Origin: an uncultured virus (IMG/VR IMGVR_UViG_3300028591_000116)
Taxonomy: Duplodnaviria > Heunggongvirae > Uroviricota > Caudoviricetes
Strand: one strand, 5' to 3'
DNA length: 63,502 nucleotides
Virus record (IMG/VR): IMGVR_UViG_3300028591_000116
Shown: positions 1,756 to 61,835 of the stretch, one piece after another
Position numbering within the stretch: the first letter of the stretch is position 1
How the letters are laid out: each line of letters opens with the position of its first letter
Notes under the pieces: model-generated
Databases searched by the model: none
The model's input: the letters and a program-made list of their open reading frames with translations, nothing else
Told to the model about the DNA's origin: nothing
Program-made: the position numbers and the translations under genes

Positions 1756-1940
1756 CCACTACAACACTTCCACAAACATTTCGGCATTTATTAGTACACG
1801 GAGATGATCCGCAGTCATTATTAGCACCACCCACGCCACATAATGCTCCACACCATAATTGGTGGCCGCAAAACGCTTGACAACTTCTAGCATCACCATA
1901 ATACGGATCTGTATTCATGCAGAAACCTACACAACTTCCT
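1756..1940 (-). other. Cys-rich cassette 1 (GSCVGFCMN...CRNVCGS), right anchor out of frame
   Basis: AGGAAGTTGT at 1940-1931 and GTTGTAGTGG at 1765-1756; 185 bp, not a multiple of 3. Confidence 0.8.
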
Positions 1941-1946
1941 GAAAAT

Positions 1947-1958
1947 AACATCTTAATG
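1947..1958 (+). promoter_or_regulatory. Putative phage-RNAP promoter AACA-N6-TG for the sheath/tube operon
   Basis: AACA tcttaa TG; the same motif precedes several other operons. Confidence 0.55.
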
Positions 1959-2073
1959 ACTTGGTTACCGATAATTTAAAGCATTAAATATATCGTTTAA
2001 CTCTTTTATTATAGGTTTGTCAGGTTAATTATATAATTAACTTTTCTTTTATTTGATTTAGGAGGTCAGAGTA

Positions 2074-4200
2074 ATGATCATCTTCGACCCTAATTTCGAT
2101 TATGCTTTCTTCGATCAGTCCATTCCGGAAGACGAATATGAAACGCCAGCCCTTGATTCTAGCCTCGGCGCTTTAATCGCTGGTTTCTCTAGTCGTGGTG
2201 TGAAGAACAAAATAATTGAAAACCGCACTAGAGGTGCCCTTAAATCAAACTTTGGCGATGATTTTGTTAACTTTGATAAGTACGGTCAGGCTAACTTGCA
2301 CGCCATGAGATTGGCTACCTCTAAGGCCAGAGTATTCTTCTGCTCACTTTGTCCAGACGATGCTAAGGTCGCATATTCTGTCTTCGGTGTATCACTTAAG
2401 ACAAACGATAGAATTCCTGTCTACCTGAGGACAGATACTGTTCTTTCAGCAGATCGCACAATGGTATTGAACTTTGGTTCAGGATCATTTGTTCTCGACG
2501 CTAATGGTGAAAAGCAGCAAATCGAACTCACAGTCAATGGAACTCCTGCTCAGGGAACTGAAGGGGAAGACGGATATGTTCCAGCTGTTCCTGGCGGAAC
2601 ACAACTTGTTACTACTTCTGGCGTAGTATTGAAAACCGAAACCGTTACATTACAGAACACAAACTGGTTTGATAACGATGGTAACCCAACAGGTTATACA
2701 GGTGAAACTATTACACTTGATAGTGGAACAGAAAACGAACGAACATTCTATCCATTATTTGCTGTTTACTACTATTCACGTGGTAAAGGTGGAAACTATT
2801 TCGCTTATCGTATTAATCGTCAGACTAATCGCGATAAGAAGTCTGTTGACGGACGTCGTTACAAATTATACTTCTACGAACTTCTTAGTACTGGTAGTTA
2901 TAAGCCACTCTATGGTGGTGAAGACTTTAACTTCTCATTTAACAAAGACGCTGTTTATAGTTCAGTTGATACAACTTCTGAATTCCTCGGAAACGTTTAC
3001 GTTAATATCGACGAAAAGAGCGAGAATAAACCCCTCCAGCTCATTACTTACAATGATTCTTATGAAGCACTTCTTGATGCAATTGTTGCAGCAGGAGCTA
3101 ACGAAGAGTCTAGCAAGTACGATATTGATGTACTGAACTGTATTTTCAAGAACGGTAATTCTTACAACAAGATCGTTGAACCTTCGGATTCAATCGATAT
3201 TGAAAATACTATTATCACTCTTGATCACGGAACAGATGGTAGTATTGAAGTTGGAAACACAGTTAAAATCAACGGTGTTGATACTGTTGTTACTAAGGAA
3301 ATCGCTGATGCTAAGAAAGAGGAACTTCTCGTTAAGTTCTTCAACTGTGATGTAGACGAAGATATCTTTGATGAGAAGATTACCGATATCGATATTCTTC
3401 CTGACGAGAATTATCCTGCTTCTGTTAAACAGGCTATTATGTCTGAATTCAGCAAATATCGTCCTGATATCCATCTTGGTATGGACCTTGGAACAGATGT
3501 TAAAACTGCTGAAGAAAGTATTAGTAAGTTCCGCGAAATTAACTCTTTCGTAAACAGTGACTGGTCATTCATGGTTTCTGTCTATGGACAGGCCGGTTTA
3601 CTTAGCGATAAAGCAATCGATGGTTCTCCTCGTGTAGTTACTTCTACTTACGACTGGGCTGCTGGTCTCGCAGACAACTTTGCTACTGGAAACGGCGCAT
3701 TCACAATGCGTGCTGGTGCTAATCGCGGTCGTGTTTCTTATTTCAGACCTTTCTGGGTTGGTAAGAAAAACAAAGCTAACACACTTGAGACACTCGAAGA
3801 ACTGCATATTAACAACATTCAGTATCTGAACAAACAGAAACAGCTTGTTTATATGCTCGAAGATACTCAGTATGAAGTGTCAACATCTAAGATGATGTCA
3901 GTTCGTAACAGTATCGTAGTTGGTCGTCTTATCCGTATGTGTGCTGGTGTTACACCTTACTACAAGTTTGATGAACGTAATATTGATCAGACTATGGAAA
4001 GTTGTAAGTCTGCTCTTAAGAAGAATCTTAAGGCTGCAAAAGTTCCAGCTAACATTCTGGTAGAATTTAGCGTTTACCAGACAAAAGAAGACGCAAAAGA
4101 AGAGAATGCTCATATCGGCATCGATATCACATTCCCTAACTATATCAAGAAGTTCCATGTAGAGATCAGGGCTCATCGTCCTAGTCCTGCTGAGAGATAA
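2074..4200 (+). CDS. Contractile tail sheath protein
   Basis: 708 aa; AGGAGG RBS; sheath-like N-terminus (GFSSRG...FG...YGQA) and C-terminus (SVRNSIVVGRLIR...IDITFPNYIKKFHVEI); directly upstream of a tube-like gene. Confidence 0.75.
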   Translation: MIIFDPNFDYAFFDQSIPEDEYETPALDSSLGALIAGFSSRGVKNKIIENRTRGALKSNFGDDFVNFDKYGQANLHAMRLATSKARVFFCSLCPDDAKVAYSVFGVSLKTNDRIPVYLRTDTVLSADRTMVLNFGSGSFVLDANGEKQQIELTVNGTPAQGTEGEDGYVPAVPGGTQLVTTSGVVLKTETVTLQNTNWFDNDGNPTGYTGETITLDSGTENERTFYPLFAVYYYSRGKGGNYFAYRINRQTNRDKKSVDGRRYKLYFYELLSTGSYKPLYGGEDFNFSFNKDAVYSSVDTTSEFLGNVYVNIDEKSENKPLQLITYNDSYEALLDAIVAAGANEESSKYDIDVLNCIFKNGNSYNKIVEPSDSIDIENTIITLDHGTDGSIEVGNTVKINGVDTVVTKEIADAKKEELLVKFFNCDVDEDIFDEKITDIDILPDENYPASVKQAIMSEFSKYRPDIHLGMDLGTDVKTAEESISKFREINSFVNSDWSFMVSVYGQAGLLSDKAIDGSPRVVTSTYDWAAGLADNFATGNGAFTMRAGANRGRVSYFRPFWVGKKNKANTLETLEELHINNIQYLNKQKQLVYMLEDTQYEVSTSKMMSVRNSIVVGRLIRMCAGVTPYYKFDERNIDQTMESCKSALKKNLKAAKVPANILVEFSVYQTKEDAKEENAHIGIDITFPNYIKKFHVEIRAHRPSPAER

Positions 4201-4213
4201 TTAGGAGCGCAAA

Positions 4214-5332: not shown

Positions 5333-5376
5333 CCATCAATCTTTAATATATCGATAACATAAATAATGATTAAAAT

Positions 5377-5398: not shown

Positions 5399-5422
5399 TA
5401 ACTTTTTTGTTTTTCTTTTTAA

Positions 5423-5662
5423 CCACTACAACCACCAGTACATCCAGCCCTAGTAGGACTACGACAGTGTGCGCTACAAGAAGTTTGACAACCTCCAGAG
5501 CAAGTGGTGTTAGAACAATCTCCAGCACACCAACCGCTTCCTCCTTGACCAGTAGCACAAATCTCATAACAAGATTGACGCATATTACAGTTAGCGGCGG
5601 AACAATTCATCCAACACATTGAAACGTGACAAGAAGCAGTACATCTATTTACACAACTTCCT
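5423..5662 (-). other. Cys-rich cassette 2 (GSCVNRCTASC...GCTGGCSG)
   Basis: Both anchors; 240 bp, stop-free; no RBS/ATG upstream; lies between two terminators. Confidence 0.85.
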
Positions 5663-5678
5663 AATAAAAGAAAAAAGA

Positions 5679-5702
5679 ACAGGAGGCATTAATGCCTCCT
5701 GT
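5679..5702 (-). terminator. Intrinsic terminator downstream of the CYTH gene
   Basis: Palindrome ACAGGAGGCATTAATGCCTCCTGT with an A-tract on its left (U tract on the minus strand). Confidence 0.75.
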
Positions 5703-5708
5703 CTATTA

Positions 5709-6587: not shown

Positions 6588-6596
6588 GACGTTTCC

Positions 6597-7288: not shown

Positions 7289-7309
7289 AATTTTATTCTC
7301 CTTTATTCA

Positions 7310-8488: not shown

Positions 8489-8692
8489 AGGAAGCTGTGT
8501 AAATGAAAACTGTAAAATACAGTGTCAATGGCCGAGTTGGTGTAATAACATGTGCGGAGGTGTACCTTGTACTAATACATGTGTAAACTCGGATTGTCAT
8601 TATGATTGCATATCTGGATGGAGTAATCAGCGTATACAAACGTGTGATAAATGCTATACTAGGATGTGTGGCGATAGTAGTGGTTGTAGTGG
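8489..8692 (+). other. Cys-rich cassette 3 (GSCVNENCKIQC...DSSGCSG)
   Basis: AGGAAGCTGT ... GTTGTAGTGG; 204 bp, stop-free; between divergent promoters. Confidence 0.85.
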
Positions 8693-30559: not shown

Positions 30560-30808
30560 CTACATTCCAAGTCCTAAAGACTGTTGCGTAATGAATTTAA
30601 GTTGAGTATCACAGTTGATTTGTACCTGCTTGGTATATTCGCTATTAGCGTTTTGTACCTGCTTGGTATATTCAGTCTGTGCGAACTTATATCTTTCAGT
30701 TACTTCTTCCTGGGTTTTATTATAAGAATCCCAGAACTTTCCCTGATCATCATTGTCGTTAAAAATGACCTCTGACAATCTGCCTTTTTCGTCGTATATT
30801 ACTTTCAT
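30560..30808 (-). CDS. Small hypothetical protein with internal EYTKQVQ duplication
   Basis: GAGGG RBS; paralog of 22910-23170. Confidence 0.7.
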   Translation of the reverse strand: MKVIYDEKGRLSEVIFNDNDDQGKFWDSYNKTQEEVTERYKFAQTEYTKQVQNANSEYTKQVQINCDTQLKFITQQSLGLGM

Positions 30809-30831: not shown

Positions 30832-30906
30832 AGCTATAATATTTAAAGAGTTATCTCTACTATACCATATAGATAATATGAACGTCAAGTATTATATAGA
30901 ATAAAA
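30832..30906 (-). promoter_or_regulatory. Duplicated promoter/leader (copy B): TTGACG-TTCATATTAT...TATAGT
   Basis: Matches 23190-23264; ends immediately before the right anchor of cassette 4. Confidence 0.7.
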
Positions 30907-30907: not shown

Positions 30908-31261
30908 CCACTACAACCACCGTCAGTTTCCCCGTTCCACGCTTTAGACGCACAACTACCACAATCGCTTAGACAATCTCCAGAACTACCACATTTAACT
31001 CTACACCAAGTGTGACATGATGACGAACAAGATGCTCCACTACCACATCCAGAAGCACAATGTCCCCAACACGAACCGGAACACAAAGGTTTAAAAATAC
31101 AAGCAGAAGTGCACGTGTCGGACGAACAACCGCTTCTCGATCCAGAAGGGACTTTACACGTGCCACCATAGCAATTTATAGCACAGTTAGATCCACAATT
31201 TCCATTCCAACCTAATGTATCGCCGACACAACCACTTGTACATGCATTTACACAACTTCCT
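30908..31261 (-). other. Cys-rich cassette 4 (GSCVNACTSGC...ETDGGCSG), the longest
   Basis: Both anchors; 354 bp, stop-free; last 156 bp identical to cassette 5. Confidence 0.85.
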
Positions 31262-36078: not shown

Positions 36079-36121
36079 AAACGAAGTAGTGGATTCTTCT
36101 AATGGAGAAGAGGAGAAAAAA

Positions 36122-36844
36122 GTGGAAAAGAAAATTCATTATACACATAATAATTCTACGGATTATTATAAACAAACTAATAATGAACGAGATCCTATGA
36201 TCACTTGCTTTAACACTTCTATGATAAACGTAGGTCTCGATATCATGAAAATTAACCCGCCTACTGGAAAAGATAAAACCGGCGGTTATACCCAACCAGA
36301 AGATCAGTTTGATTGGTATATGCATAATAGTCCTGAAGTTAAAGCTTGGGTAGATGATTACTGTAAAACTGAATGGGTTGCTGATTATCTTAAAGATGGC
36401 GGAGACATTCGTGAATTATGGGAAGTTGAATGTTACTGTTTTAATAAATGGATTGGCAGAACAGTATGTAGAATCAATTATCACATGACAAAACATGATT
36501 TCATTGAAGAGATTCAAAGAGGTCGTGGTGTTGTAACAACAGGTAAGTTCAGCGGATTTGCCCATGCTGTAAGTGTAGTAGGATTCAAATCTATTATAAC
36601 CAACTACGATCACGACATTTATTTAACAGGGGACAATATTAGTCTTCCAGTAGATAACGACTGTGCTTTTGTTGAAGAGATGATCATAGACGACTCATAT
36701 GGCAACCCACTCAATAAATACAAACCTGTGGGTGTTGGTGGAAATGATGTTCATTTAAATGCAATAGATTTCTTTAAAGCTATAAATAAAGATAGCAAAC
36801 ATGAAACCTATTATGGTATAATTTTCGACAAGATAACAAACTAA
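36122..36844 (+). CDS. Papain-like (C39-like) cysteine peptidase
   Basis: KQTNN...TCFNTS (Gln/Cys), HAVSVVG (His), IIDDSYG (Asp); AGGAG RBS before the GTG at 36122. Confidence 0.65.
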   Translation: MEKKIHYTHNNSTDYYKQTNNERDPMITCFNTSMINVGLDIMKINPPTGKDKTGGYTQPEDQFDWYMHNSPEVKAWVDDYCKTEWVADYLKDGGDIRELWEVECYCFNKWIGRTVCRINYHMTKHDFIEEIQRGRGVVTTGKFSGFAHAVSVVGFKSIITNYDHDIYLTGDNISLPVDNDCAFVEEMIIDDSYGNPLNKYKPVGVGGNDVHLNAIDFFKAINKDSKHETYYGIIFDKITN

Positions 36845-41513: not shown

Positions 41514-41699
41514 AGGAAGTTGTGCTAAAAATACTTGTATCAAACATTGTGCTTCTGGATGTGGTAGTGGAGCATCTTGTTCGTCATCATGTCACACTTG
41601 GTGTAGAGTTAAATGTGGTAGTTCTGGAGATTGTCTAAGCGATTGTGGTAGTTGTGCGTCTAAAGCGTGGAACGGGGAAACTGACGGTGGTTGTAGTGG
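41514..41699 (+). other. Cys-rich cassette 5 (GSCAKNTCIKHC...ETDGGCSG)
   Basis: Both anchors; 186 bp; 41544-41699 identical to the reverse complement of 30908-31063. Confidence 0.85.
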
Positions 41700-41715
41700 T
41701 TAAAAAGAAAAAAGA

Positions 41716-43185: not shown

Positions 43186-43395
43186 AGGAAGTTGTTTAGG
43201 TCGATGTGGACATAGTTGCGCTTGGTCATGTAGAGCATCTCCTTGTGAAACTAGTTCTGGGTGTTATGATCATTGTGCTGGAAATGGAGGCGGGACTATG
43301 TGTGCTGATGGAGGTTGTAATAACTCGTGTGCGATATGTGTTTCGACTTGTTCTAATTGGTGTTGGAATATTGGTGCTGGCTGTGGTTGTAGTGG
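43186..43395 (+). other. Cys-rich cassette 6 (GSCLGRCGHSC...GAGCGCSG)
   Basis: Both anchors; 210 bp, stop-free. Confidence 0.85.
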
Positions 43396-53700: not shown

Positions 53701-55707
53701 GACGGATCGCTTGTTAATTATGGATACGACTTTAAGATTGTAGGAATTGCCGCAAGCAATAACTCTGTGTATTTGTTTGATGGTGTCAATTCTATGGTAA
53801 TGAAGCTTGATCTTGAAAGAAAAGTTCTTTCTAAAAAAATCAATATGCATAATCTTAATTCTACATCTAACGTAGTTTCTGATATGCATGGAGACATCGT
53901 ATACTTTGCAAACGAAAGTTCATTGTATAAGATCGTTAATGATGAGATCATCTTTATCGCTTCTGGTCTTACCGAATTAAACATCACATCTTTGAGATAT
54001 ATAGAAAACAACGACACTATTAGATACTCTGCTATCAATAATAATGGAGACGTTGTTAAGATATATAGCTTCAACCTTTCAGATTCTAGTATAACTGAAG
54101 TAGGAAGTTTGAACACTCCTATTCGTGCTGAAAATAGAATTACTGATTATGCTAATATTGGCATGAGACGGTATTCGGCTAACTTTGCACTTGACAAATA
54201 CGGTAATCTGACTATTGTTGGTGGAAGCAAGAGCTCTGTAGATTATAATCCTACACACGTTACTACTATTGACGGTACTAACTTCAACAACTTTATTGAA
54301 ACCGTCGCAGATGAAAACGCTAAGAAAATGGTTGCTCTTCGTACAATTGTAGATGATAACCATATGTATTCTCTTGGTATTGGAAACAATGATGTAGTAA
54401 ACGTAGTATTCTCTAATAGAAACGAGAATGATATAAAAGGAACTGCCGAATTTAAAGTAGGTTCTGTTACAGACAATAAACGTTATTTCACACACAATAA
54501 CGAGTTATTCTGTATTGAGGTCGCAGCAAACTCATTCAGAGTTATGAAATATAACAAAGAAATTAAAGAGTTTGTCATTTACTCTCCTGAAGCAATTGAA
54601 AAGACAGGAACTTATGTTTCTAGTCACGCTTATTCAGACGGAACGATGTATGCTGTATTCTTGACCACTAATGGTGGAGAAATCAAGTTTAATGTAGTAT
54701 GCTATAACCTCAATACAAAGAAGCACGTTTCTAGTGTTACAGAGACAGTATATACTTCTCTTAATACTAGCATTGGAAGTTCTCTTAAGATAATCGATAA
54801 TGGTTCTTGGAACGGAAAGTATTTCACTACTATTCTTGGAACTGGAACTGTATCTGATAGTATCTTAGTTACAGTAAACGTTTTGAAACTTGAAGGAATT
54901 AAAGTTCTTGGAAGAACTATTAGCTCTTCTGGTGGAATCAATAACAATTCTGCTGTATATTTCAATGACAAACTGTATAGCTTTGGTACAGAGAACAATG
55001 TCTATAAGACTAAACTTACAAACATCGACTTGAACAATACAGAAATTGTTAATGTAACACAGGTAGCTAATGGCGGTATCAAAAATGATAGAGTCACAGG
55101 TTCTAGTACAGCAATAGTTTCTGGTTCTCGCATGGTTGTAACAGGCATTTATGAACCTAGTGAAATCTCAAATGTTAGTAGAAAATTCGCTGTTTCTAAT
55201 ACAGAAATTAAACAGAAATCTTTGAATAACAATAAACTTTTAATTCTTCCTGATAATAGAATTGGTATCGGAAACGGTAACAACTCTAACTCAGAAGCGC
55301 CTACAGTTTATGATATAGCCAAGACACCTGTGAAATCTATTGAGTTCTCAAACGAACTTGCTATTAGAGTTTACTCTGGTGTTAATGAAGATATTATGGT
55401 TTCATTCAACCCTAATACAAACGATGTGTATTACAGTCTCAAGATTTCTCGCGAATACGGTTCTTCTATTAGAGATCTGGTTAAACTCAATGACAACAGT
55501 TATGTGGTTCTTCACTCTGATACTCCTCGCGTTTCTACTCTCGTAATTAATACGAATGGAACACTCTCTTTCAAGAGATACGACGGAGTTCTTCTTGGTG
55601 AACCTATTAACACTGGAACAAATATACATACTATTCAGGAAGCAGACTTTACAATGCTCTTCGATAGTGAAATGGACGAATACGCTTTGCGTCAGGAGTC
55701 CGTTTAA
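47791..55707 (+). CDS. Very large beta-rich virion protein (beta-propeller/Kelch-like repeats, one InlB B-like repeat); possible tail fibre/baseplate
   Basis: 2638 aa; YYNGYIYIFGG Kelch-like motif; IPKPSKMGYSFIGWS InlB-B-like motif. Confidence 0.6.
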   Translation: MPYTSEELINGFYQDNNNYEEIGELHANSKQAVVGRIDSRYNSTKKISLQAPDSDRLIYNFSSDSKVNDVAIRSAYDNLTEKTMFVGKDFLAVYDSESGNFVLKEPHEVLKILINPFDAKIDAGLGGLVDENITHLTYDQLDFVCKSLKYVVSADKYFFIISELNNGHSVIWKFDPDTLRISKFRPKDFYDGPGAETILAKPFIYNSVMYIYTKTTENKVRVWSCNVNDDNSNTRFVYSDVLGEANGIGSVSANSFGYIIDNVNGTDVIKAFNIHNGELRAVHYPIGDIDSVVQYEVQDVEGTAEDYTNNSIKYIKKVGLTNNVHIIMLLKTGLMKVIDNGYSNDAIQIKTRRGFNCKAFVKYLEGRLDGENHNYPIVKLYNDVGKCRVLTSDEGQYNYGTLSTSGNAAVDVVAFTDKDELLLNFENAYDIIGYTEYGKKTIIFGWFNENGVIKPLIKEIDPKREGYSVTEKTVEQSEVIRPFHTGLEPDSGISIVKNVPFGNTKTVRVKVTPHIGEEAKDNEDLYFRESNNLNEDGKYTTGSVLWNALKESGIPYNTHVRTIGRIILDGYDIPIESVLITRPDESKDYGSVLLSFDKLFDITALDQKYLKLGNVLYPGILFKNNKGFLNDAMISNVYNIDSTFAYDDASNGQIFEDLSLSIKSAIILNDTEDPIMIIASSNGKISSINMNTGSYITASGTEFGENAPNITSRDIPYNWVKDGEIVALIKSNSKPAFFVLYASGKIVEIHYANQFVISVIEHGHYVSESDGYNLDTVYAVKGNTLAYYINDGSKKLNLFDLDSATTISDNLDDFISLPSANSLYINVNGDFFYIHGTSLIKFNPIAGSYTTFASNLPSGSNMLCYDFNDRIYISNGTELKYVELSTRQVQARNIAGIDSYNGFLVYYNNKLYTVNTAGYICYIEDDDSVVVTETEYDYNSRKLKQIYFDEKEVDLVFVTSSLVTRLIISNTNDISTYGYGINTTINTDCSIYYDGNKYRYVDSPVDHSVTISDVIREITSEASVPSSNGEEFIGFNNDIIYIRYNNMVYAKDLRKTLLNYINRLSNHNITLRTENTKPVTALGFIDNGNSIAICFNDGAIESVYLPEYNATDGYYASNYGDIIENYSRTIFEQHSITLEPEEPGEAVGEDETISLANIPKPSKMGYSFIGWSDSPSEEDMISINQAAASDRELHNGDVIYAVYKDNHEEYVDRCVTRMYAKAGEFFNTGVISINQIKDDIYFQSSDKSIRWANDIGVFFEGHDENFTGKNTSKTGVYNGNKLASKLFINGAGSINIGKYVFYINGYNPSDTNPQTTVHNGIVVYDSQNDEYSVMSKGTDKLHGTILSRIFPFCYYYNGYIYIFGGLKRKDIHVDGNNYSKFNETYKIERFDIRTGESVILAAKYGPNGHDPDTDDNYSDINTIRHLNYEENAYFDENHQNDKVLTGIIIHAENFEGEGYYYRFSLTSENAICEYDSNDSNQMFEDTLAELGFDKNTRFYIGKSDRNEDDFGIRCSNNIFYDLPEEAKLNGFDITEPFKVDDHIEFLIRTSKEFIRLAYYKTDDHDGEFVEMSRVKYSENNALNKLYFTPLEHCKYHVSKLMNVGENGELMLDNAPIISSSILNYTYAYGKQIFKPFDQEFFEILSEREWTPKGENLAVEFVDNTEFLFNIEDGKKLKIKKISADGSTSEVSTGINGDKVHTVVGSDDIITCFITRSDDIKLTNIVSYSIDKGVAVSRNFTGEYRAPDVFFYESITKKIFASTGTSVLCFTGIDINSLDAGLGVSISEAEIDGVRGFNSVDENHIALFNVLHDSAKTRIVTDTCRFDTISGAIVGEDNYSTLDINLDTSDKDIKIVQVNGEFIIVCNDNEYLFIDDSNNVESVNNKSPENQAVYQIDDDGIRFISGSKRYKQFRLQKEFLAGTNIIPIGQNFSKLDNAYITQNDSEIFVYANRNIFAIDKKTKTVSTYEGTDGSLVNYGYDFKIVGIAASNNSVYLFDGVNSMVMKLDLERKVLSKKINMHNLNSTSNVVSDMHGDIVYFANESSLYKIVNDEIIFIASGLTELNITSLRYIENNDTIRYSAINNNGDVVKIYSFNLSDSSITEVGSLNTPIRAENRITDYANIGMRRYSANFALDKYGNLTIVGGSKSSVDYNPTHVTTIDGTNFNNFIETVADENAKKMVALRTIVDDNHMYSLGIGNNDVVNVVFSNRNENDIKGTAEFKVGSVTDNKRYFTHNNELFCIEVAANSFRVMKYNKEIKEFVIYSPEAIEKTGTYVSSHAYSDGTMYAVFLTTNGGEIKFNVVCYNLNTKKHVSSVTETVYTSLNTSIGSSLKIIDNGSWNGKYFTTILGTGTVSDSILVTVNVLKLEGIKVLGRTISSSGGINNNSAVYFNDKLYSFGTENNVYKTKLTNIDLNNTEIVNVTQVANGGIKNDRVTGSSTAIVSGSRMVVTGIYEPSEISNVSRKFAVSNTEIKQKSLNNNKLLILPDNRIGIGNGNNSNSEAPTVYDIAKTPVKSIEFSNELAIRVYSGVNEDIMVSFNPNTNDVYYSLKISREYGSSIRDLVKLNDNSYVVLHSDTPRVSTLVINTNGTLSFKRYDGVLLGEPINTGTNIHTIQEADFTMLFDSEMDEYALRQESV

Positions 55708-55730
55708 GATAAAATAGGCTAAGGAGTATT

Positions 55731-57068
55731 TTGATGCAAACAAGTAGAAACCCTAAAGTTCTAAATAAAGTATTAAAATATAAGCTCCGACCTATTCTTG
55801 ATAAAATAACTCAACTTGAAGGTGTGCAGTTGGATAACAATGCATATATCCAAAATATCACCTCTCAAGTTGAGAATATGAAAGAACAGGCAACTGAAGA
55901 GCTTGAAAATTATAAAACCGCTTCTGCTAAGTTGGATACTTCTCTCAGTAAAGCTGATAAGAATTTGTCTAACTTAATCAAGAACACATTGTATAATCCT
56001 AACTCTACTACTAAAACAGGTGGTGGAGGAAGTAGCGGTGAATCAGGCGAAGAAGAAACAAAGCTGATTACCGATAAAGGAATCGATGCTGCATGTTACG
56101 GATTAGTAATTGACGGTATCGATTATTCTATTTACGGTGTAACCGGTAAAGGTATCGCTGTTGGTGTAAATCCTGGAACAGAAAATGAGTATGAATGGAG
56201 AAACCCTGCTAACGATATAGACACATTCCCTTCATATTACATTAACGATATCTTATTTATCAATACAAACGAAGTGTTGATCGCAACAAATAACGGTATA
56301 GTTCGATATCTTATGAAAGAAAAGAGCTACACAGTTATGGATAAGAGTTTCGGTATTCCCCACAACACCGTATACAGAGTTATTAAAGTACAGACTTCTG
56401 ACGGAACCTTCAGAGGATATATGGCTATGACAGAAAGAGGTATCGCTTTCAGTCCTGACGCTAGACGTTGGACAGTAATAGCTTCAGAATTCACTGAAAG
56501 TTGTATCTGTGTGGCTAAAACTAATCTCATTGATACTCCTCAGAGTATTGTATTTATCGGAACAGCTTCTGGTGTTTATTACTTTGATATGGACAAATTC
56601 ATTAGTGAAGATGTTCGTGAGGTTAAAGAAATACCAGGATTAAACCTCATTCTTCCTTCTACTTATATCAACGGTTTAGCATATGACGTAGATAACGATG
56701 TTTTGGCTTTTGTATCATTAAGTGGATTAACAGTAGTTAACGGAGCAAAAGATCTTATACAATCTGGTGAAAAGGTTTCGAACGTATCCAGAGTATCTAT
56801 GTTTAATGCCAGTAACGGTTTAAACACCAGTTCTTGTTATGATTGTATTTATACAGTAGATAACAAGCTCGTGGTGTGTACATCTAATGGATTAAACATC
56901 ACTGCGGATTATTCTAGTTTCTCTACTATTACTAAATCCCTCAATACTTACAATCCTGAAAGTGGCGAGTTGTTAAATTCGTTTATATGTAACAAAATTG
57001 TTAGAAAATCTAGTAATAAATACACTGTATTACACGGTGTAGGACTTACAGAAGATATAACGATATAA
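55731..57068 (+). CDS. Coiled-coil plus beta-propeller (Reg_prop-like) protein
   Basis: GIPHNTVYRV, LPSTYINGL and GLNTSSCYDC...CTSNGL blades; AGGAG RBS. Confidence 0.6.
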   Translation: MMQTSRNPKVLNKVLKYKLRPILDKITQLEGVQLDNNAYIQNITSQVENMKEQATEELENYKTASAKLDTSLSKADKNLSNLIKNTLYNPNSTTKTGGGGSSGESGEEETKLITDKGIDAACYGLVIDGIDYSIYGVTGKGIAVGVNPGTENEYEWRNPANDIDTFPSYYINDILFINTNEVLIATNNGIVRYLMKEKSYTVMDKSFGIPHNTVYRVIKVQTSDGTFRGYMAMTERGIAFSPDARRWTVIASEFTESCICVAKTNLIDTPQSIVFIGTASGVYYFDMDKFISEDVREVKEIPGLNLILPSTYINGLAYDVDNDVLAFVSLSGLTVVNGAKDLIQSGEKVSNVSRVSMFNASNGLNTSSCYDCIYTVDNKLVVCTSNGLNITADYSSFSTITKSLNTYNPESGELLNSFICNKIVRKSSNKYTVLHGVGLTEDITI

Positions 57069-57074
57069 AATAAG

Positions 57075-57096
57075 CTCCTCCCAATTAAGGGAGGAG
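57075..57096. terminator. Bidirectional terminator
   Basis: CTCCTCCC-aattaa-GGGAGGAG between convergent genes. Confidence 0.75.
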
Positions 57097-57101
57097 TCTT
57101 T

Positions 57102-57479
57102 TTATTTGTTCAAATCATCGAGGATTTCTTTTTCTTCTTTATCTATAACATGTTCATTCAACCAAGCTATAGAATCAACCGATAAAAATCCTTCAGCCAC
57201 CACTTTATTAAATTCTTCTCTTACTTCTGGGATATTAAAGATTACAAATCTTCCTTTTCCATTATGCATAAGTTCAAATAACTTAGAATAGATTTCCTTT
57301 GTAGCAGTTTCTACATCAGGATATTTAAAGAAAACGTTTATCAACCAGGCATCTTTAAATAACTGATATTTATCTGGTTTACGAAGATCTTTCACGATTC
57401 CGCCAGCGTAAAAATCAATAGTTTCTTCTACCTGTCTATGAACGTCATCGTCACATTCAAACTGAATATACAAAATCAT
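57102..57479 (-). CDS. Hypothetical protein
   Basis: AGGAG RBS; 4-nt overlap with the upstream gene. Confidence 0.7.
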   Translation of the reverse strand: MILYIQFECDDDVHRQVEETIDFYAGGIVKDLRKPDKYQLFKDAWLINVFFKYPDVETATKEIYSKLFELMHNGKGRFVIFNIPEVREEFNKVVAEGFLSVDSIAWLNEHVIDKEEKEILDDLNK

Positions 57480-58258
57480 AATTCTATTATATTCTCCTTA
57501 GATAAAGCGTTCTTATGTTGACTGGATATCTTTTTCTGAATTTCAGGATCTCTAATCTTCCCAATCATACTAGTTTGCGCAGTGTCAAAACACAAGTTAG
57601 TTCTTACCAAATACAAATTATTAGCTTGACTATTCTTTATATCATTATCTATTGCTAATACCTGATAATCACAAACTGCTGAAGCATAATATTTAAGATC
57701 AGAATCTCTATTAAGAACTTGAACTTTATCAAAGAAATTATTTCTCATCTGTTGTATGAGACACTTTCTAGCAAACATAGTCAAAAGTTTCTTAATATCA
57801 GAAGTATAAGTTTTGATTTCATCAGAAAGATAGAACTTTCTTGTTGAAACACCTTCTCTCTCGAATGCAGACAATGTAGTCATAACAATATAATTTGCTA
57901 AAACTGTCTTTAATCTATCAAATGCTAATCGTTGTTCATCGTAAATTTCCTGATCGTGAGACGTAGGATATTCTTTAACAAAACGTTTAACTACTGTGTT
58001 ATATAGATTAGAATCCTCAAGTGAAAGTGTTATTACATATTCAAATTTTTCATTTTTATTTTTCAAAGATTCATCGTCGTCTGAAATTCGTTTATGCACA
58101 ATTACTCGCTTTCGTTTTATAGGTTTAATTCTAACCACAAAGCTACTTTCATATTTACAACCTATAAAAACCTTAATCTCAAACTGATCATCAAACGTTC
58201 TCATACAATATTCTTCAGAATGACTAGAATTCCTTGTAAACAAATTTAACAATCCCAT
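57476..58258 (-). CDS. Hypothetical protein
   Basis: GGGAG RBS; 260 aa. Confidence 0.7.
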   Translation of the reverse strand: MGLLNLFTRNSSHSEEYCMRTFDDQFEIKVFIGCKYESSFVVRIKPIKRKRVIVHKRISDDDESLKNKNEKFEYVITLSLEDSNLYNTVVKRFVKEYPTSHDQEIYDEQRLAFDRLKTVLANYIVMTTLSAFEREGVSTRKFYLSDEIKTYTSDIKKLLTMFARKCLIQQMRNNFFDKVQVLNRDSDLKYYASAVCDYQVLAIDNDIKNSQANNLYLVRTNLCFDTAQTSMIGKIRDPEIQKKISSQHKNALSKENIIEL

Positions 58259-58312
58259 TTTATTCTCCCTTTTTAATTTTACATTAAAAAGTTAATAATC
58301 ATTTACATTCGT

Positions 58313-58510
58313 AGGAAGTTGTAGTGGATGTAGAACTTCTTGTAGTGAAGCTTGTAGTAATAACGGAGGTTGCTCTCCTAAATGCTCTAGTTGGTGTTAT
58401 ACAGGGTTTTGTCAAGGATCTTGTGTTTATAATTGTCAAGGTTGTACTTATATGTGTAATATAAGCGGTGGCGGATGCGGAAATACCTGTACGTCTGGTG
58501 GTTGTAGTGG
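58313..58510 (+). other. Cys-rich cassette 7 (GSCSGCRTSC...CTSGGCSG)
   Basis: Both anchors; 198 bp, stop-free; in-frame TAA six codons upstream with no start in between; absent from the ORF track. Confidence 0.85.
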
Positions 58511-58566
58511 TTAAAAAGAAAAAAAATAACTCTACTAACACTTTTGTGCTTTCGAGTTATTCTGAA

Positions 58567-58875
58567 TCACTTCTGTTTAGCGACTTCATAAACCGCATTC
58601 ACAGATTCGAAGTTAAATGCTTCTGGATGATCTGTGTTTATTTCAATCTTAGCGATCCTTCCTAATGAATCTCTTTCAACAGATTTTATAGCATCAGGTT
58701 TTGTGAAATTAAACTTCATGTCACTAATCTTATCTGGATTTAACCTTTCTTCAATCTTTCTTGAAAAATCAAATTTCATGTTTGATGTTTTGTCAGGATT
58801 AAACGAACAAGGTTTATTTGAATTACCAGTAAGATTCTTTTCATGTGTTTTAATTTCATTGATTTCTCTAAACAT
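58567..58875 (-). CDS. Hypothetical protein with internal NPDKxSxMKF duplication
   Basis: AGGAGG RBS; TTCATATTAT motif upstream. Confidence 0.7.
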   Translation of the reverse strand: MFREINEIKTHEKNLTGNSNKPCSFNPDKTSNMKFDFSRKIEERLNPDKISDMKFNFTKPDAIKSVERDSLGRIAKIEINTDHPEAFNFESVNAVYEVAKQK

Positions 58876-58938
58876 AAATACCTCCTAAGTATTCTCTACA
58901 ATAATAATATGAACGTCGAACACTATATAAAATAAATT

Positions 58939-59166
58939 CCACTACAACCACTATTACAAGAAGCAGCACAACCAGCGTGTCCTTGAGAGCAATCTCCATT
59001 ACATGCTTGCCAACCACAATGTGCGGTCCCACAAGTTGAACCATTATACGTCCAAAAATTACAATCCCAAGCACATCCAGCACACGATTGGCATACTCCT
59101 GAACAAGCTGTTACTCCATAGCATGATTTAGTACAACCTTCCATACATGCACTAAAACAACTTCCT
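58939..59166 (-). other. Cys-rich cassette 8 (GSCFSACMEGC...CNSGCSG)
   Basis: Both anchors; 228 bp, stop-free; directly after a terminator U tract. Confidence 0.85.
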
Positions 59167-59187
59167 GAACAAAAAGAAAAAATAACT

Positions 59188-59210
59188 ACTGGGTGGAATT
59201 TCCACCCAGT
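59188..59210 (-). terminator. Intrinsic terminator
   Basis: ACTGGGTGGA-att-TCCACCCAGT with an A-tract on its left. Confidence 0.7.
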
Positions 59211-59298
59211 TTTAACTATTCTTCTTTGTTCTTTTTCTTAACAGGAATCAATAATCCAATTAATATTCCTATTAATATGCAAACCAGTATGTCCATTT

Positions 59299-59556
59299 TT
59301 AATTACTTACTCCATATATCAACTCTTCTGGTTTATTTTCTTCACATATCTTAGTCATAACGTCTGTCTCTGGAAGCTTTTGTGTCGCTGCTATATAAGC
59401 TAATGCTCCAAAAGTATCATCGTATTTATTATTACCATTTCTACGATTCATCTCTATCAACGTTTCTCTCAACTCTTTATCATTATGTGAAGTTCTTATA
59501 CCAAACTCGTGTTTTTCTCGCATAAATTTCTTTCCTCTATTGCTTTTCTTATCCAA
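59299..59556 (-). CDS. Hypothetical protein (true start probably MREKHEF)
   Basis: GAGG RBS before the internal Met. Confidence 0.6.
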   Translation of the reverse strand: MDKKSNRGKKFMREKHEFGIRTSHNDKELRETLIEMNRRNGNNKYDDTFGALAYIAATQKLPETDVMTKICEENKPEELIYGVSN

Positions 59557-59825
59557 TAGTATCTGTCTGGGATAAATATTCTTCTTAGAATCTTATCTCG
59601 GTTTTTAATCGACAAATAAACAATTGAATAAACTAAATAATAGATAATTTGATCGAATATATTTCTTTCAACCTTAAAGTAATATCCGGTTTCAAGTTTA
59701 CTTGGTTTAAAATCTAAACTTGCCCGGCTAAATAATCCCTTATGACATCTAATAGATTCAAACTTATCTTTATCGTTTAGTTTAGGGATACATCCTATTG
59801 GCATTAGTATTTCAGTTTCCATCAA
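59496..59825 (-). CDS. Hypothetical protein
   Basis: AGGAG RBS; part of a compact minus-strand operon. Confidence 0.6.
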   Translation of the reverse strand: MMETEILMPIGCIPKLNDKDKFESIRCHKGLFSRASLDFKPSKLETGYYFKVERNIFDQIIYYLVYSIVYLSIKNRDKILRRIFIPDRYYWIRKAIEERNLCEKNTSLV

Positions 59826-59992
59826 TAATTATCTCCTAAAGCTCGCCAATCATCATCTGTGAAATTAGCATACATTTCTTCAGTCTTCTTTCTAGCAGCT
59901 TCTTTTTCTTCCTCAGACATCGTAGGTTCAATAAATTCGCTCATTAGACTAAAATCTGGCTCAGCATAGGTGTTCATTTCTAAAGTATTCAT
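59822..59992 (-). CDS. Small acidic protein (56 aa, MNTLEMNTYAEPDF...)
   Basis: AGGAG RBS; fills the gap in the operon. Confidence 0.6.
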   Translation of the reverse strand: MNTLEMNTYAEPDFSLMSEFIEPTMSEEEKEAARKKTEEMYANFTDDDWRALGDNY

Positions 59993-60013
59993 TTTAAATG
60001 CACTCTCCTTTAA

Positions 60014-60298
60014 TTACACGGCTTTGATACAATTAGCAGCAATATAGATAAAGTATATAACTCCTGCTACAATTATTTCAATGCCAAAAATACCGATGGA
60101 AACTTCAAGTATTTTATTTGAAAAGAACAGCACAACATCATTTATATTATCCATATGCCATAAAACATTATCAAAAATGCTATCTTTATAATATTTATTG
60201 CGTAATGCTAAATCTATTAATCCACTAAATAGATATAATAGCAATGAAACACCTGCTATTATGAATATTATAATATTGATTTTAACAATAATAATCAT
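60014..60298 (-). CDS. Two-TM membrane protein
   Basis: Two hydrophobic segments; 4-nt overlap. Confidence 0.6.
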   Translation of the reverse strand: MIIIVKINIIIFIIAGVSLLLYLFSGLIDLALRNKYYKDSIFDNVLWHMDNINDVVLFFSNKILEVSIGIFGIEIIVAGVIYFIYIAANCIKAV

Positions 60299-60675
60299 AA
60301 TGACACTTCCTTCTCTTTAAGCGAAGATAGAGATGCAGATTTATAAGGTTCAATAACGAAATATTCAGAGCCAACACCTTTAACATATATGTTTTTCAAT
60401 ATTCGTAAAGTTCTATTTTCGAAATTAGCTCTAGCTTGCTTATCCATCTGCTGGTATTCTTTTGAAGTAATAAATTCTTTTAATTTTTGTGCATATTCAA
60501 TCATTGAATCTAAAGTTCCAACTTTAGCATTATACACATTAAGAACACTTCCTAAATCATGTAGCTTCGTCAATAAATCGATGTCTTTTACTGAATCTAG
60601 ATGATATTGACAAGCTAATTGCTGTGCAAATCTAGAATCTTCCAATGTGCACTGAATCTTCTCTGTTTCTTCCAT
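60295..60675 (-). CDS. Hypothetical protein
   Basis: AGGAG RBS. Confidence 0.7.
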   Translation of the reverse strand: MEETEKIQCTLEDSRFAQQLACQYHLDSVKDIDLLTKLHDLGSVLNVYNAKVGTLDSMIEYAQKLKEFITSKEYQQMDKQARANFENRTLRILKNIYVKGVGSEYFVIEPYKSASLSSLKEKEVSL

Positions 60676-61020
60676 TTATTTCTCCTTAACCCATTCTTTA
60701 AATCTTTTAAAACAATCGTCACAAAGATCAAAAACTTCACCGTCAAAATCTTTATACGAGGACCTAGCCTTAAATATAATCTCATCCGCAAATTTTGCGT
60801 CATCTGAATTTATCGGAGGACGACCTGCTCCTAGATATGGTCCATAATCTCTTACATAATCTCGATGGACAAGCTGTGTTCTAGATGAAATGCTTCCTAT
60901 ACCCAAGAATCCTATTAATGGTCTTTTTTCATACCCACTATCAGAAATTTCTTTACCACACTTATCACAATATATAACAGGACATTCTTTTTTCTCATAA
61001 TGAGTTCTACTCTTTATCAT
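60676..61020 (-). CDS. Zn-ribbon hypothetical protein
   Basis: CDKCGKEI ... DLCDDC pairs; AGGAG RBS. Confidence 0.7.
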   Translation of the reverse strand: MIKSRTHYEKKECPVIYCDKCGKEISDSGYEKRPLIGFLGIGSISSRTQLVHRDYVRDYGPYLGAGRPPINSDDAKFADEIIFKARSSYKDFDGEVFDLCDDCFKRFKEWVKEK

Positions 61021-61486
61021 TTTTAACTCCTTTTTTCATTTTTTTGTTTTTACTCCCATAAATATACTTGTTTTCAAGACGGTGTTTTGTAAATATTACT
61101 GTCCTATCAGACGGTTTATTGATATTATGATGGAATATTTTAACGTCTTCACCAGACGATTTACAAATACAACAATATTCAATTGGCCCCATGTTATAAG
61201 GAAGAGTCCATCTGTTGCATTTCTTACAAAACAAAGTTATCATTTCATAAGGTTGGAAATCTGAATTACGATATTTTACAGCGTTTCCACAATAACTAAA
61301 TCTAAGACGTCTATTTAGTTTATGCTCACCATGTTTTATTTTAGAAGTTTTAGTAGCATGATTTATATGAGTAATTATTGCTCTAGTACAATAAGCATCT
61401 TGTTGTATTTCTACATTTTTAGATTCGAGATCATTTAGAGAAATACCGTGTGTTTCTAATAATTTACCTAACGCTTTTGTTGTCAT
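61007..61486 (-). CDS. Hypothetical protein with CxxC pairs
   Basis: CKKC...CCIC; GAGG RBS. Confidence 0.65.
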   Translation of the reverse strand: MTTKALGKLLETHGISLNDLESKNVEIQQDAYCTRAIITHINHATKTSKIKHGEHKLNRRLRFSYCGNAVKYRNSDFQPYEMITLFCKKCNRWTLPYNMGPIEYCCICKSSGEDVKIFHHNINKPSDRTVIFTKHRLENKYIYGSKNKKMKKGVKNDKE

Positions 61487-61580
61487 ATATTACCTCACTT
61501 ATTAGTTAAATAATATATAAAGAAAAAAGAAGCCGACACCGAGGCCTGTTTCTTATATATTCTTCATTAAATAAATTATA

Positions 61581-61835
61581 CCACTACAACCACTAGTACA
61601 TGCTGAAGTGCATACGCCAGAGCAACCGATAGTACAACCAATATGACAATACTCCCAAGCACATCCCGGTGTACAACTAGGATCGCAAGAAGCAGAACAT
61701 GAGTTCGCGCCAGAACAATGTCCAGTACATGCTATACGATAATGACACGCCGACGAACAACTATGACCACAATATCCAGGCCAATCGCGATCCTCACCTG
61801 AGCTAGTAGTACAAACTGACGCTACACAACTTCCT
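61581..61835 (-). other. Cys-rich cassette 9 (GSCVASVCTTSSGEDRDWPGYC...CTSGCSG)
   Basis: Both anchors; 255 bp, stop-free; directly after a terminator U tract; absent from the ORF track. Confidence 0.85.

Follow-up and report, generated by a model that had tools for sequence, protein, structure and literature searches.

Nine dispersed cassettes with fixed DNA ends as probable silent spare modules for a hypervariable segment of a large cysteine-rich phage protein

Introduction

In Neisseria, pilS loci hold promoterless, start-less partial copies at several positions that have long conserved blocks in common with pilE, and pilE/pilS conversion requires RecA and a G4 element near pilE. The DGR of Bordetella phage BPP-1 (Mtd) has a single template repeat, almost identical to the variable repeat, together with adenine-specific changes and a reverse transcriptase. 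In the Mu Gin, P1 Cin and R64 Rci systems the alternative segments lie together beside the gene, a dedicated recombinase adjoins them, and the C-terminal end is replaced. In Borrelia burgdorferi, vlsE is a single expression site whose internal region is matched by unexpressed cassettes, segments of which replace it (PMC3474939). The 15 vls cassettes lie in one uninterrupted array on a single plasmid and are >90% identical to the expressed cassette region (PMC3474939).

The window analysed here is a stretch of 63,502 nucleotides from an uncultured virus (IMG/VR IMGVR_UViG_3300028591_000116) containing nine Cys-rich cassettes and part of a large gene, also Cys-rich, that is the candidate expression site. 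An earlier note had likened the cassettes to pilS and vls; the architecture is indeed analogous, but the phage cassettes are not members of those systems. As in vlsE/vls, a candidate expression site is accompanied by probably unexpressed cassettes corresponding to its internal region, and a tract common to cassettes 4 and 5 represents the same kind of segmental copying. Unlike the vls cassettes, those of the phage belong to a virus rather than a bacterium, are scattered along both strands across 60 kb or more, and have nothing in common but 10-13-nt ends and Cys spacing; their transfer into the expression site is proposed below. The features in common with pilE/pilS are dispersed partial copies, short conserved sequences shared with the expressed gene, and a constant part beside the variable part, whereas the phage variable part is internal and bounded by two different short anchors. 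As with the DGR, a phage would be diversifying a defined protein segment (of a virion protein in the DGR) from a non-translated template; here, in contrast, the templates would be numerous and unrelated, and a screen of 47 ORFs gave no reverse transcriptase. Invertible tail-fibre segments and shufflons are similar in that DNA rearrangement connects start-less alternative segments to the constant portion of one gene, and the relatives' proteins P0014 and P0022 have a correspondingly reciprocal look. They differ in that the phage cassettes are dispersed, an internal segment is replaced, no recombinase is seen in the window, and neither anchor is an inverted copy of the other.

Results

Cassettes and their DNA ends

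All nine cassettes are present at the positions previously claimed for them, and have the lengths claimed:

Cassette 1, 1756..1940, minus strand: 185 nt; GSC...CGS, then an out-of-frame right anchor; no other cassette has an in-frame ATG, which here lies 12 nt upstream; called as the 70-aa protein P0009 in the source
Cassette 2, 5423..5662, minus strand: 240 nt, 80 codons; in-frame start absent; a terminator on either side, with T-tails touching both anchors; orthologs P0011, P0013, P0025, P0026, L007 and L008 (dN/dS 0.30-0.37)
Cassette 3, 8489..8692, plus strand: 204 nt; left anchor is the AGGAAGCTGT variant; without an in-frame canonical start
Cassette 4, 30908..31261, minus strand: 354 nt, 118 codons; first in-frame start at codon 59
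Cassette 5, 41514..41699, plus strand: 186 nt; both neighbour genes on the opposite strand; GCSG followed at once by TAA; ortholog P0002
Cassette 6, 43186..43395, plus strand: 210 nt; both neighbour genes on the opposite strand; orthologs P0012, P0027 and P0028
Cassette 7, 58313..58510, plus strand: 198 nt; overlapping anchors AGGAAGTTGTAGTGG at its start; no upstream in-frame start
Cassette 8, 58939..59166, minus strand: 228 nt; left anchor touched by a terminator T-tail
Cassette 9, 61581..61835, minus strand: 255 nt; directly after the large-gene terminator; ATG, GTG and TTG absent from its 93-codon frame; ortholog P0010

The left anchor, AGGAAGYTGT, has nine exact matches in the window against 0.22 expected (shuffle maximum 2, n=100), all of them at cassette left ends, and in five of the nine cassettes it extends to TTCAGGAAGTTGT. 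The motif GTTGTAGTGG was matched 11 times in the window (0.08 expected): nine matches are cassette right ends, a tenth falls within the beginning of cassette 7, at an overlap of the left and right anchors that encodes GSCSG, and the last belongs to the large gene (63456-63465, minus strand). The full right anchor is the 13-nt sequence GTGGTTGTAGTGG, whose nine exact matches in the window (0.00 expected) are carried by eight cassettes, cassette 1 excepted, and by the large Cys-rich gene that runs off the end of the window. GTTGT is common to both anchors.

Eight of the nine cassettes are stop-free multiples of three in frame +1 and encode GSC...GCSG, as reported earlier. Among all stop-to-stop frames of the window, a density of at least 7 Cys per 30 residues is reached only by eight cassettes and the large gene; the densest 30 residues of cassette 1 contain 6. 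Conservation of the anchors at the DNA level was also borne out: AGT and GGA are near-invariant in the anchors, and synonymous codons vary inside the cassettes (interior Ser AGT, 21/80; Gly GGA, 34/82). Compared with the first aligned cassette, the interiors show 26-54% identity, and beyond the anchors there are no common terminal repeats. The phage is a giant one of the sheep and goat gut, and its cassettes lie on both strands, spread over at least 60 kb.

The large Cys-rich gene and its relatives

Two features of the large gene bear on its candidacy as the expression site:

61910..63502, minus strand: 3' 530 codons of the large gene, candidate expression site; 5' part outside the window
63456..63468, minus strand: 13-nt right anchor GTGGTTGTAGTGG, at the variable/constant junction

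The part in the window comprises the end of the variable segment, GCSG, Cys-rich region 2 (~210 aa) and a C-terminal domain (~305 aa). A full-length protein among the database relatives (P0015, 881 aa) consists, in order, of an N-terminal globular domain, Cys-rich region 1 (...CGGSCSGSC), the variable segment, GCSG, Cys-rich region 2 and the C-terminal domain. The variable segment spans ~40-80 residues, and its left boundary in the expression site is SGSC, as read in the relatives' proteins. The earlier note had named, as an outcome that would count against it, a full-length gene without an in-frame left anchor and without variation; the relatives show both SGSC, at the protein level, and variable segments.

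P0014 and P0015 are identical at 302 of 303 residues through SGSC and unrelated thereafter. In the other direction, P0003 and P0015 are identical from GCSG on (522/522), as are P0005 and P0023 (510/510), and in both pairs the segments before GCSG differ. The listings of P0003 and P0015 each give a contig of 81,186 bp, so that they may belong to two strains or be two loci of one genome. Constant region 2 follows six different expression-site versions, and P0014 contains a seventh; among themselves they show local identities of ~31-65%, with the single exception of P0005/P0024 at 93%. These comparisons indicate that the variable segment turns over rapidly among near-identical strains. That different pieces lie between the same two end motifs in close strains points to bacterial-style cassette swapping in a virus.

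Flanks, start signals and selection

The flanks had been described as ordinary AT-rich DNA, but they are not merely so: TTTTTCTTTT terminator T-tails adjoin the anchors. Seven copies of TTTTTCTTTT occur in the window (1.29 expected), six of which are terminator T-tails 3-5 nt from an anchor:

5410..5419, plus strand: TTTTTCTTTT T-tail adjoining an anchor
5666-5675, minus strand: TTTTTCTTTT T-tail adjoining an anchor
41703-41712, minus strand: TTTTTCTTTT T-tail adjoining an anchor
58514-58523, minus strand: TTTTTCTTTT T-tail adjoining an anchor
59172-59181, minus strand: TTTTTCTTTT T-tail adjoining an anchor
61839-61848, minus strand: TTTTTCTTTT T-tail adjoining an anchor

T-tails touch the left anchors of cassettes 2, 8 and 9, where a promoter therefore has no room. 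GCSG is followed directly by TAA and then by a hairpin in cassettes 2, 5 and 7, and terminator-like hairpins lie on the sense strand 3' of cassettes 6 and 9. No upstream 8-nt motif common to the cassettes was found, the common 7-mers being T- or A-runs. The residues past GCSG vary, orthologs included (an immediate stop, EFK, KKNEH, KRKIKKVT).

The claim that no cassette has a convincing ribosome-binding site plus start was borne out and can be made more precise. An RBS was seen in 0/9 and a canonical in-frame start is absent in 6/9; three cassettes have one between the upstream stop and the anchor (ATG in cassette 1, TTG in cassettes 5 and 6). An SD-like 4-mer accompanies none of these three candidate starts, compared with 32 of 37 ordinary genes. 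In cassettes 7 and 9 near-cognate start codons are also absent upstream in frame. The starts of cassettes 5 and 6 are retained in the relatives P0002 and P0012. Between L007 and L008 a 1-nt indel just 5' of the anchor puts the upstream TTG out of frame.

In the Cys frame dN/dS was 0.37, 0.30 and 0.09, compared with 0.92-1.22 and 0.38-1.02 in the remaining two frames, and all Cys residues of cassettes 2, 5, 6 and 9 are retained in aligned relatives. By this measure the cassettes are under protein-level selection, though mostly start-less.

Recombination, relocation and donor search

A 156-nt tract is 100% identical between cassettes 4 and 5 (30908-31063, the 3' end of cassette 4, and 41544-41699 in cassette 5) and stops exactly at the right anchor. 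It represents one conversion tract between the two cassettes. Cassettes also appear in different surroundings. L008 is collinear with window positions 48874-57132 and then carries the ortholog of cassette 2, the window copy of which is instead at 5413-5672; homology stops ~10 nt beyond each anchor. In P0010, the cassette 9 ortholog, the flanks differ on both sides. In P0022, constant region 2 is preceded by a cassette with a slot-type 5' flank (..AFFFLCS|GSC), and in P0014 the N-terminal half and a cassette run into GCSG|FI; the two look like reciprocal products.

Donors were sought among the nine window cassettes and nine cassette proteins of relatives, a search that saw half of the 125.5-kb contig; within that set none of the seven expression-site versions had a match of >52% identity over at least 20 residues, and the best short match was 69% over 13 residues. 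Across cassettes 7 and 8 the close strain X2 has 28 differences in 1525 nt and no swap. The 47 window ORFs gave no match (E <=0.01) to a recombinase, integrase, reverse transcriptase or RecA-type family, with one faint exception, a UvsX-like PHROG match inside a DnaB-like helicase.

Discussion

The nine elements probably serve as silent spare parts, kept in frame, for a single hypervariable segment in the large Cys-rich phage protein. The silent-cassette archive suggested by the earlier note gains support from the full-length architecture in relatives, the right anchor at the junction, and cassettes that are start-less but selected. Recombination guided by a left anchor (TTC)AGGAAGTTGT and a right anchor GTGGTTGTAGTGG would swap the expression-site segment for the content of a dispersed cassette, and anchor-guided recombination would also transfer content among cassette slots. 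The main mode would be copy-paste gene conversion, proceeding from the right anchor leftward over a variable distance, and occasional reciprocal crossovers would separate the gene halves. The archive would thereby feed the expression site, presumably by this mode and perhaps with an enzyme taking part; the terminators may keep the archive silent, and the large protein may be located on the virion surface. Several observations count against an archive: with 10-13 nt, the homology arms offer very little length for ordinary homologous recombination, the in-frame starts of cassettes 1, 5 and 6 leave room for in-place expression, and there is neither a donor-recipient pair among the sequences compared, nor an enzyme candidate in the window, nor a swap in X2.

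The cassettes could instead be selfish in-frame mobile modules, their anchors being the ends recognised by a transposase or homing enzyme, which land beside terminator T-tails and, without harm, in Cys-rich repeat genes, variation of the large gene being a by-product. The position of six of seven TTTTTCTTTT T-tails 3-5 nt from an anchor, in either orientation, would suit such modules, as would the same cassette in another slot in L008 with homology stopping ~10 nt outside the anchors, the overlapping anchors of cassette 7, which resemble an empty site, and the GTTGT in both anchors, as a 5-bp target duplication would give. However, the low interior identity and lack of further terminal repeats suggest old paralogs rather than recent copies, purifying selection on the peptide is unexplained if the content is mere cargo, and no transposase-like family was found in the 47 ORFs; selfish modules are therefore unlikely. 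The cassettes might also be ordinary small genes whose free Cys-rich peptides are made in place, by unusual initiation or after processing, and whose GSC/GCSG ends are shared with the large protein through descent or as a maturation signal only. Purifying selection on the peptide would suit such genes; their placement is gene-like, with TAA and a hairpin after cassettes 2, 5 and 7 and hairpins after 6 and 9, and cassettes 1, 5 and 6 have an in-frame ATG or TTG, kept in P0002 and P0012 for 5 and 6. Such genes are nevertheless improbable: six of nine would have no start codon (cassette 9 none in its whole frame), the SD-like motif is missing at all three candidate starts while 32 of 37 ordinary genes have it, T-tails adjoin the left anchors of cassettes 2, 8 and 9 and leave no space for a promoter, no common upstream 8-nt motif was found, leaders before GSC and tails after GCSG are unconserved even in orthologs, and a peptide signal does not account for fixed anchor codons.

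Variation of the large gene might also arise by allele exchange between co-infecting strains through its long constant regions, the cassettes being uninvolved relics of old duplications. The near-identical constant regions on either side are good substrates for ordinary recombination, and, among the sequences compared, no archive cassette matches any expression-site version. Relics would be expected to decay, yet eight of nine are intact, with dN/dS of 0.09-0.37 and every Cys kept; they would also have to end by chance, with fixed codons, at both motifs that bound the variable segment, and the tract in cassettes 4 and 5 shows the cassettes themselves recombining at an anchor. Allele exchange alone is thus distinctly unlikely. 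Joining at the RNA level, with cassette transcripts spliced or template-switched at the anchors and the DNA unchanged, would tolerate cassettes on both strands, and at five of nine left anchors a pyrimidine run ends in TTC and is followed by AG, like a splice acceptor. It is highly improbable, as different segments are present in the DNA assemblies of different strains, the right anchor is followed by no uniform donor site, Rfam intron and ribozyme families number 0 in the window, and no joints involving an anchor were found in an RNA run.

Near the junction, the large gene also contains a partial likeness to the left anchor:

63476..63485, minus strand: TGGAAGTTAT, in-frame G-S-Y, left-anchor look-alike at 8/10 bases

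It sits 7 nt 5' of the 13-nt right anchor; the stretch is rich in Gly and Ser, and the resemblance may be fortuitous. Twelve codons downstream of the large-gene anchor GGCSG recurs, encoded by different codons.

Conserved ends and reading frames of the cassettes

The left anchor AGGAAGYTGT, written (TTC)AGGAAGTTGT, occurs nine times in the window against 0.22 occurrences expected from shuffles, and a longer form, TTCAGGAAGTTGT, is present in five of the nine Cys-rich cassettes (c1 to c9). GTTGTAGTGG occurs 11 times (0.08 expected): at the nine cassette ends, once in the start of c7, where the left and right anchors overlap as AGGAAGTTGTAGTGG, and once in the large Cys-rich gene at the window end. 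The true size of the right anchor is 13 nt: GTGGTTGTAGTGG is present in exact form nine times (0.00 expected), eight times in cassettes and once in the large gene.

Eight of the nine cassettes have a length that is a multiple of three and no stops in the GSC...GCSG frame; in c1 the right anchor falls in another frame. Apart from the frames of eight cassettes and of the large gene, none in the window has at least seven Cys per 30 residues; c1 reaches six. Within the cassette interiors Ser is encoded by AGT in 21 of 80 codons and Gly by GGA in 34 of 82, whereas the anchors nearly always use AGT and GGA. As the anchor codons are almost fixed and the interiors varied, the ends are conserved as DNA, beyond the level of the peptide. 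The lengths and frames, the fixed DNA ends and the DNA-level conservation that the earlier note had described were thus all borne out.

The anchor pattern with a 160-190-nt gap matched six loci in IMG/VR, none of them Cys-rich, and 81 stretches in GTDB genomes with at most nine Cys, the 12 richest all containing one to five stops. A cassette profile compared with 1.84 billion representatives matched solely the window's own two proteins.

Coding capacity without a start

Cassette c2 (5423-5662, minus strand) was compared with two orthologs from metagenomes. In the Cys frame dN/dS was 0.37 and 0.30, and 0.09 between the two orthologs; the other two frames gave 0.92-1.22 and 0.38-1.02. The Cys codon changes were all synonymous (TGT to TGC), with none to another residue, and all Cys of c2, c5, c6 and c9 are kept in aligned relatives.

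In six of the nine cassettes the stretch from the upstream stop to the anchor contains no in-frame ATG, GTG or TTG. Near-cognate codons are absent from c7 and c9 as well, and the 93 codons of the c9 frame include no start codon. The three candidate starts (c1, c5 and c6) all lack a Shine-Dalgarno-like motif, which 32 of 37 ordinary genes possess, so the absence of a convincing ribosome-binding site and start, claimed previously, held. A one-base difference between two very close relatives, L007 and L008, in the T-run before the anchor puts the sole upstream TTG out of frame, and the residues 3' of GCSG vary, even among orthologs. Selection in the Cys frame, the lack of usable starts and the variable tails together make the selected unit exactly GSC...GCSG. 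Judged on these features, the cassettes appear to be protein-coding but untranslatable in place, and such a unit would be sensible only if joined in frame to another sequence.

Several ways of expressing the cassettes in place were considered and rejected. AGGAAG could not serve as a Shine-Dalgarno sequence for the TTG or GTG of the anchor: neither codon is in frame, and frame 0 meets a stop after 1-22 codons. Frameshifting by +1 out of an upstream ORF in frame 0 was discarded because c1, c6 and c7 have no frame-0 start of any kind. For the same reason a pattern seen in terminator hairpins upstream of c2 and c9 (5678-5703 and 61847-61872, both minus strand) is not general: these carry GGAGG or GAGGAG followed at Shine-Dalgarno spacing by ATG (c2) or TTG (c9), in frame 0 of the anchor and one base off the Cys frame. 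A splice acceptor (TTC-AG) at the left anchor would apply to only five of the nine cassettes, and the right side is non-uniform. No 8-mer is common to at least four of the cassettes' upstream regions, as a shared promoter might be, and the window contains no match to Rfam families at the gathering threshold.

A variable segment in the large Cys-rich gene

The candidate expression site is the large gene at 61910-63502 (minus strand), which continues past the window end; its full-length form was read from members of its protein clusters. The 881-residue relative P0015 comprises, in order, an N-terminal domain of ~155 residues without Cys, a Cys-rich region ending ...CGGSCSGSC, a 57-residue segment, GCSG, a second Cys-rich region (~210 residues) and a C-terminal domain (~305 residues). 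On the left, P0014 shares 302 of 303 residues with P0015 as far as SGSC; past this point the two are unrelated. From GCSG to the end, P0003 and P0015 are identical (522/522), as are P0005 and P0023 (510/510), and P0022 matches P0023 at 503 of 510; within the second Cys-rich region the window protein and P0003 agree at 213 of 215 positions. The segment before GCSG exists in six versions (P0005 and P0024 counted as one, and the window's own, ...YETGGGGSYGPG, included) plus that of P0014. These share ~31-65% local identity and are no closer to each other than the archive cassettes are.

The SGSC and GCSG boundaries are seen as protein across P0014, P0015, P0003, P0005, P0022 and P0023, the right one also as DNA in the window, where the exact 13-nt right anchor lies at the junction of variable and constant sequence; a second GGCSG, 12 codons downstream, uses other codons. 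The alignments show that the variable segment of the expressed protein lies between the two cassette motifs (the left at the protein level) and that it turns over, whereas the flanking sequence is unchanged across hundreds of residues. The earlier note had staked its reading on an in-frame left anchor and on variation in the full-length gene. The gene carries both boundary motifs, the left one as protein only, and its segment differs among relatives.

P0003 and P0015 are each recorded on a contig of 81,186 bp; they may come from two strains or be two loci in a single genome. The left boundary GGSCSGSC of P0014 and P0015 (residues ~295-303) contains GSCSG, the peptide of the overlapping anchors at the start of c7, and could be what an empty slot has left beside a filled one.

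The large protein family has no relative in Pfam, PHROG, solved structures or the atlas, and a search of the ESM Atlas with the large protein gave no usable match. Structure predictions were unusable (pLDDT 37.6 for the whole protein and 50.1 for the C-terminal domain), and a wide fold search returned a best Z of 4.0 and no usable match. With no known family or fold, a virion role for the protein is a guess. At the DNA level, neither the large gene nor the helicase had a relative in IMG/VR, JGI metagenomes, genomes or INPHARED, a blastn of 7.9 kb included, and the exact window-end sequence had no match in IMG/VR and genomes.

Relocation of cassettes

Cassettes c4 (30908-31261, minus strand) and c5 (41514-41699, plus strand), 10 kb apart and on opposite strands, have in common a stretch of 156 nt (100% identity) that stops exactly at the right anchor; their 5' parts and 3' flanks are unrelated. 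Because the relative P0002 has the c5 layout, c4 looks like the recipient. The L008 relative is collinear with window 48874-57132 and then carries the c2 ortholog right behind the terminator of the 445-aa gene; in the window this cassette sits at 5413-5672, and the homology ends ~10 nt outside either anchor. The c9 ortholog, P0010, differs in its flanks on both sides.

Two proteins bear on exchange with the expression site. P0022 consists of a slot flank of the T-run type (..AFFFLCS, then GSC), a 78-residue cassette and the second constant region. P0014 consists of the N-terminal half and a cassette, then GCSG directly followed by FI; its end is either a stop or the edge of a 1,207-bp contig. 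Taken together, P0014 and P0022 resemble the pair of products that one crossover of the expression site with a slot would leave. The 156-nt tract of c4 and c5 (one case) is duplicative, yet P0014 and P0022 look reciprocal.

Contigs of sequencing runs aligned to the window contained no cassette swap. In run X2 a close strain covers c7 and c8 with 28 differences in 1,525 nt; X2 and X3 provide almost no cover over 61519-63502 at 85% likeness, and missing cover there carries no meaning. An apparent joint of 58951 to 59157 was dismissed as an artefact, since the 102-nt contig concerned fits the 3' flank common to c4 and c8. One contig of the source run ends at 63469, one base past the 13-nt anchor, which at best faintly suggests a branch there. 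Sheep gut RNA (run X6) yielded contigs with no differences over pieces of the 2638-aa gene and the genes at 58.7-61.4 kb, with depth highest over 60852-61518; the phage is therefore present in a metatranscriptome. No cassette was covered among the X6 pieces listed, and contigs of this kind cannot show silence, strand or level.

Interpretation and comparison with known systems

We consider it rather probable that the cassettes form a silent archive of spare modules that serve a single internal slot in a large Cys-rich phage protein. Recombination at two short anchors would exchange these modules with that slot. A stronger reading, to which we would give an even chance, is that this virus has a programmed system of the antigenic-variation type, in which genome-wide silent, terminator-insulated, start-less modules are copied or swapped via 10-13-nt anchors into a single internal slot of a large, Cys-rich virion protein. 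It would require recombination activity on very short homology.

Other explanations are less well supported. The cassettes might be a selfish in-frame mobile module, or yield free peptides through an unusual mode of initiation; alleles might be exchanged from strain to strain, with the cassettes as relics; or joining might occur at the RNA level. No donor was recognized: none of seven expression-site versions exceeded 52% identity over at least 20 residues to any of 18 cassette sequences (nine from the window and nine proteins from relatives), a weak comparison, as it covers half of this genome and, for the relatives, cassette proteins in place of whole archives.

The earlier note had likened the cassettes to pilS and vls. 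The analogy stands for the start-less partial copies, which also lack a shared upstream motif, and for a variable region bounded as the cassettes are; for derivation of the expressed segment from the cassettes it gained no support in the weak comparison above. The architecture of cassettes and large gene resembles that of pilE/pilS. The vls system has one expression site, unexpressed cassettes and segmental replacement (PMC3474939); the phage likewise has one putative expression site and start-less cassettes. Its cassettes are dispersed, have no more than 10-13 nt in common with the expression site and reside in a virus, and the arrangement belongs to neither system.

Recombinase, integrase, reverse transcriptase and radical-SAM families were not found in the 47 window ORFs. 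A diversity-generating retroelement (DGR) needs a reverse transcriptase and a template repeat differing mainly at adenines; here no family of that enzyme was found in those ORFs and the cassettes are 26-54% identical to the first aligned cassette. Shufflons and invertase switches have clustered invertible segments, inverted copies of one site and an adjacent recombinase, whereas these cassettes are dispersed over 1756-61835 on both strands with unlike anchors. Integron cassettes are characterized by an attC hairpin, GTTRRRY core sites and the IntI integrase; the anchors read GTTGTAG and GTTGTGT, neither of which matches that core.

Among bacterial and protozoan pathogens, variation through cassettes is a classic device, and phages are known to diversify virion proteins by DGRs and invertible segments. 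In titles and abstract openings of the literature on silent-cassette gene conversion with bacteriophage, no phage system was apparent, and a literature search for Cys-rich intergenic elements of jumbo phages found none. If the antigenic-variation-type reading is true, one phage lineage could alter a protein surface far faster than by mutation, perhaps changing host range or escaping a host defence that senses the protein, and phages would have, next to DGRs and invertible fibre segments, a third way of diversifying themselves. If the archive feeds the expression site, phages would have a new means of varying a structural protein and a natural recombination system using 10-13-nt arms, and, because slot and spare parts are defined to the base, a compact and testable model would be available.

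Phage and genomic setting

The window is about half of a 125,502-bp contig, which comes from a distant phiKZ-like jumbo phage. The tail sheath family PF20961 (phiKZ_gp29PR) scored 28.7 bits against a cut-off of 26, divergent DnaB (PF20307, divDNAB) matched with E = 1.2e-27, and the best tblastn matches of the terminase were phiKZ-like phages at 26-33% identity; these assignments supply genomic context only. Virion and RNA-polymerase-like PHROGs are present in the window, and the phage was detected in gut metagenomes of sheep, goats and cattle.

Every cassette has an intergenic position: three run antisense to the two co-oriented genes that flank them, three lie directly behind the terminator of a co-oriented gene and three in divergent regions. 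TTTTTCTTTT occurs seven times in the window (1.29 expected), six of them as terminator T-tails 3-5 nt from an anchor, and c2 has one such T-tail at either end.

ACGTTCATATTAT is present in exactly three copies (1720-1732, 30873-30885 and 58904-58916, all minus strand), 22-25 nt behind the right anchors of c1, c4 and c8 and upstream of small genes with a strong RBS (1480-1671, 30560-30808 and 58567-58875). This motif may act as a phage promoter or belong to a larger cassette unit. The c4 and c8 flanks are 87.5% alike over 48 nt; the small proteins behind c1, c4 and c8 have no clear kinship (19-20% identity). From the 445-aa gene to the one at 59822-59992, the window (57100-59800) is ~2.7 kb longer than L008 (8200-8500); the additional stretch comprises four to five small genes, c7 and c8, where L008 has only the c2 ortholog.

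Three giant ORFs were noted:

8762-16321, plus strand, 2519 aa; C-terminal M15 peptidase/endolysin-like domain at residues 2231-2378
31333-36078, plus strand, 1581 aa; Listeria-Bacteroides repeats
47791-55707, plus strand, 2638 aa; only faint Kelch/WD40-like matches

The repeats of the 1581-aa ORF hint at a Gram-positive host surface. Its 3' end is overlapped by 119 nt, in a different frame, by a 294-aa ORF (35960-36844, plus strand), an overlap that could reflect a miscalled start or a site of frameshifting.
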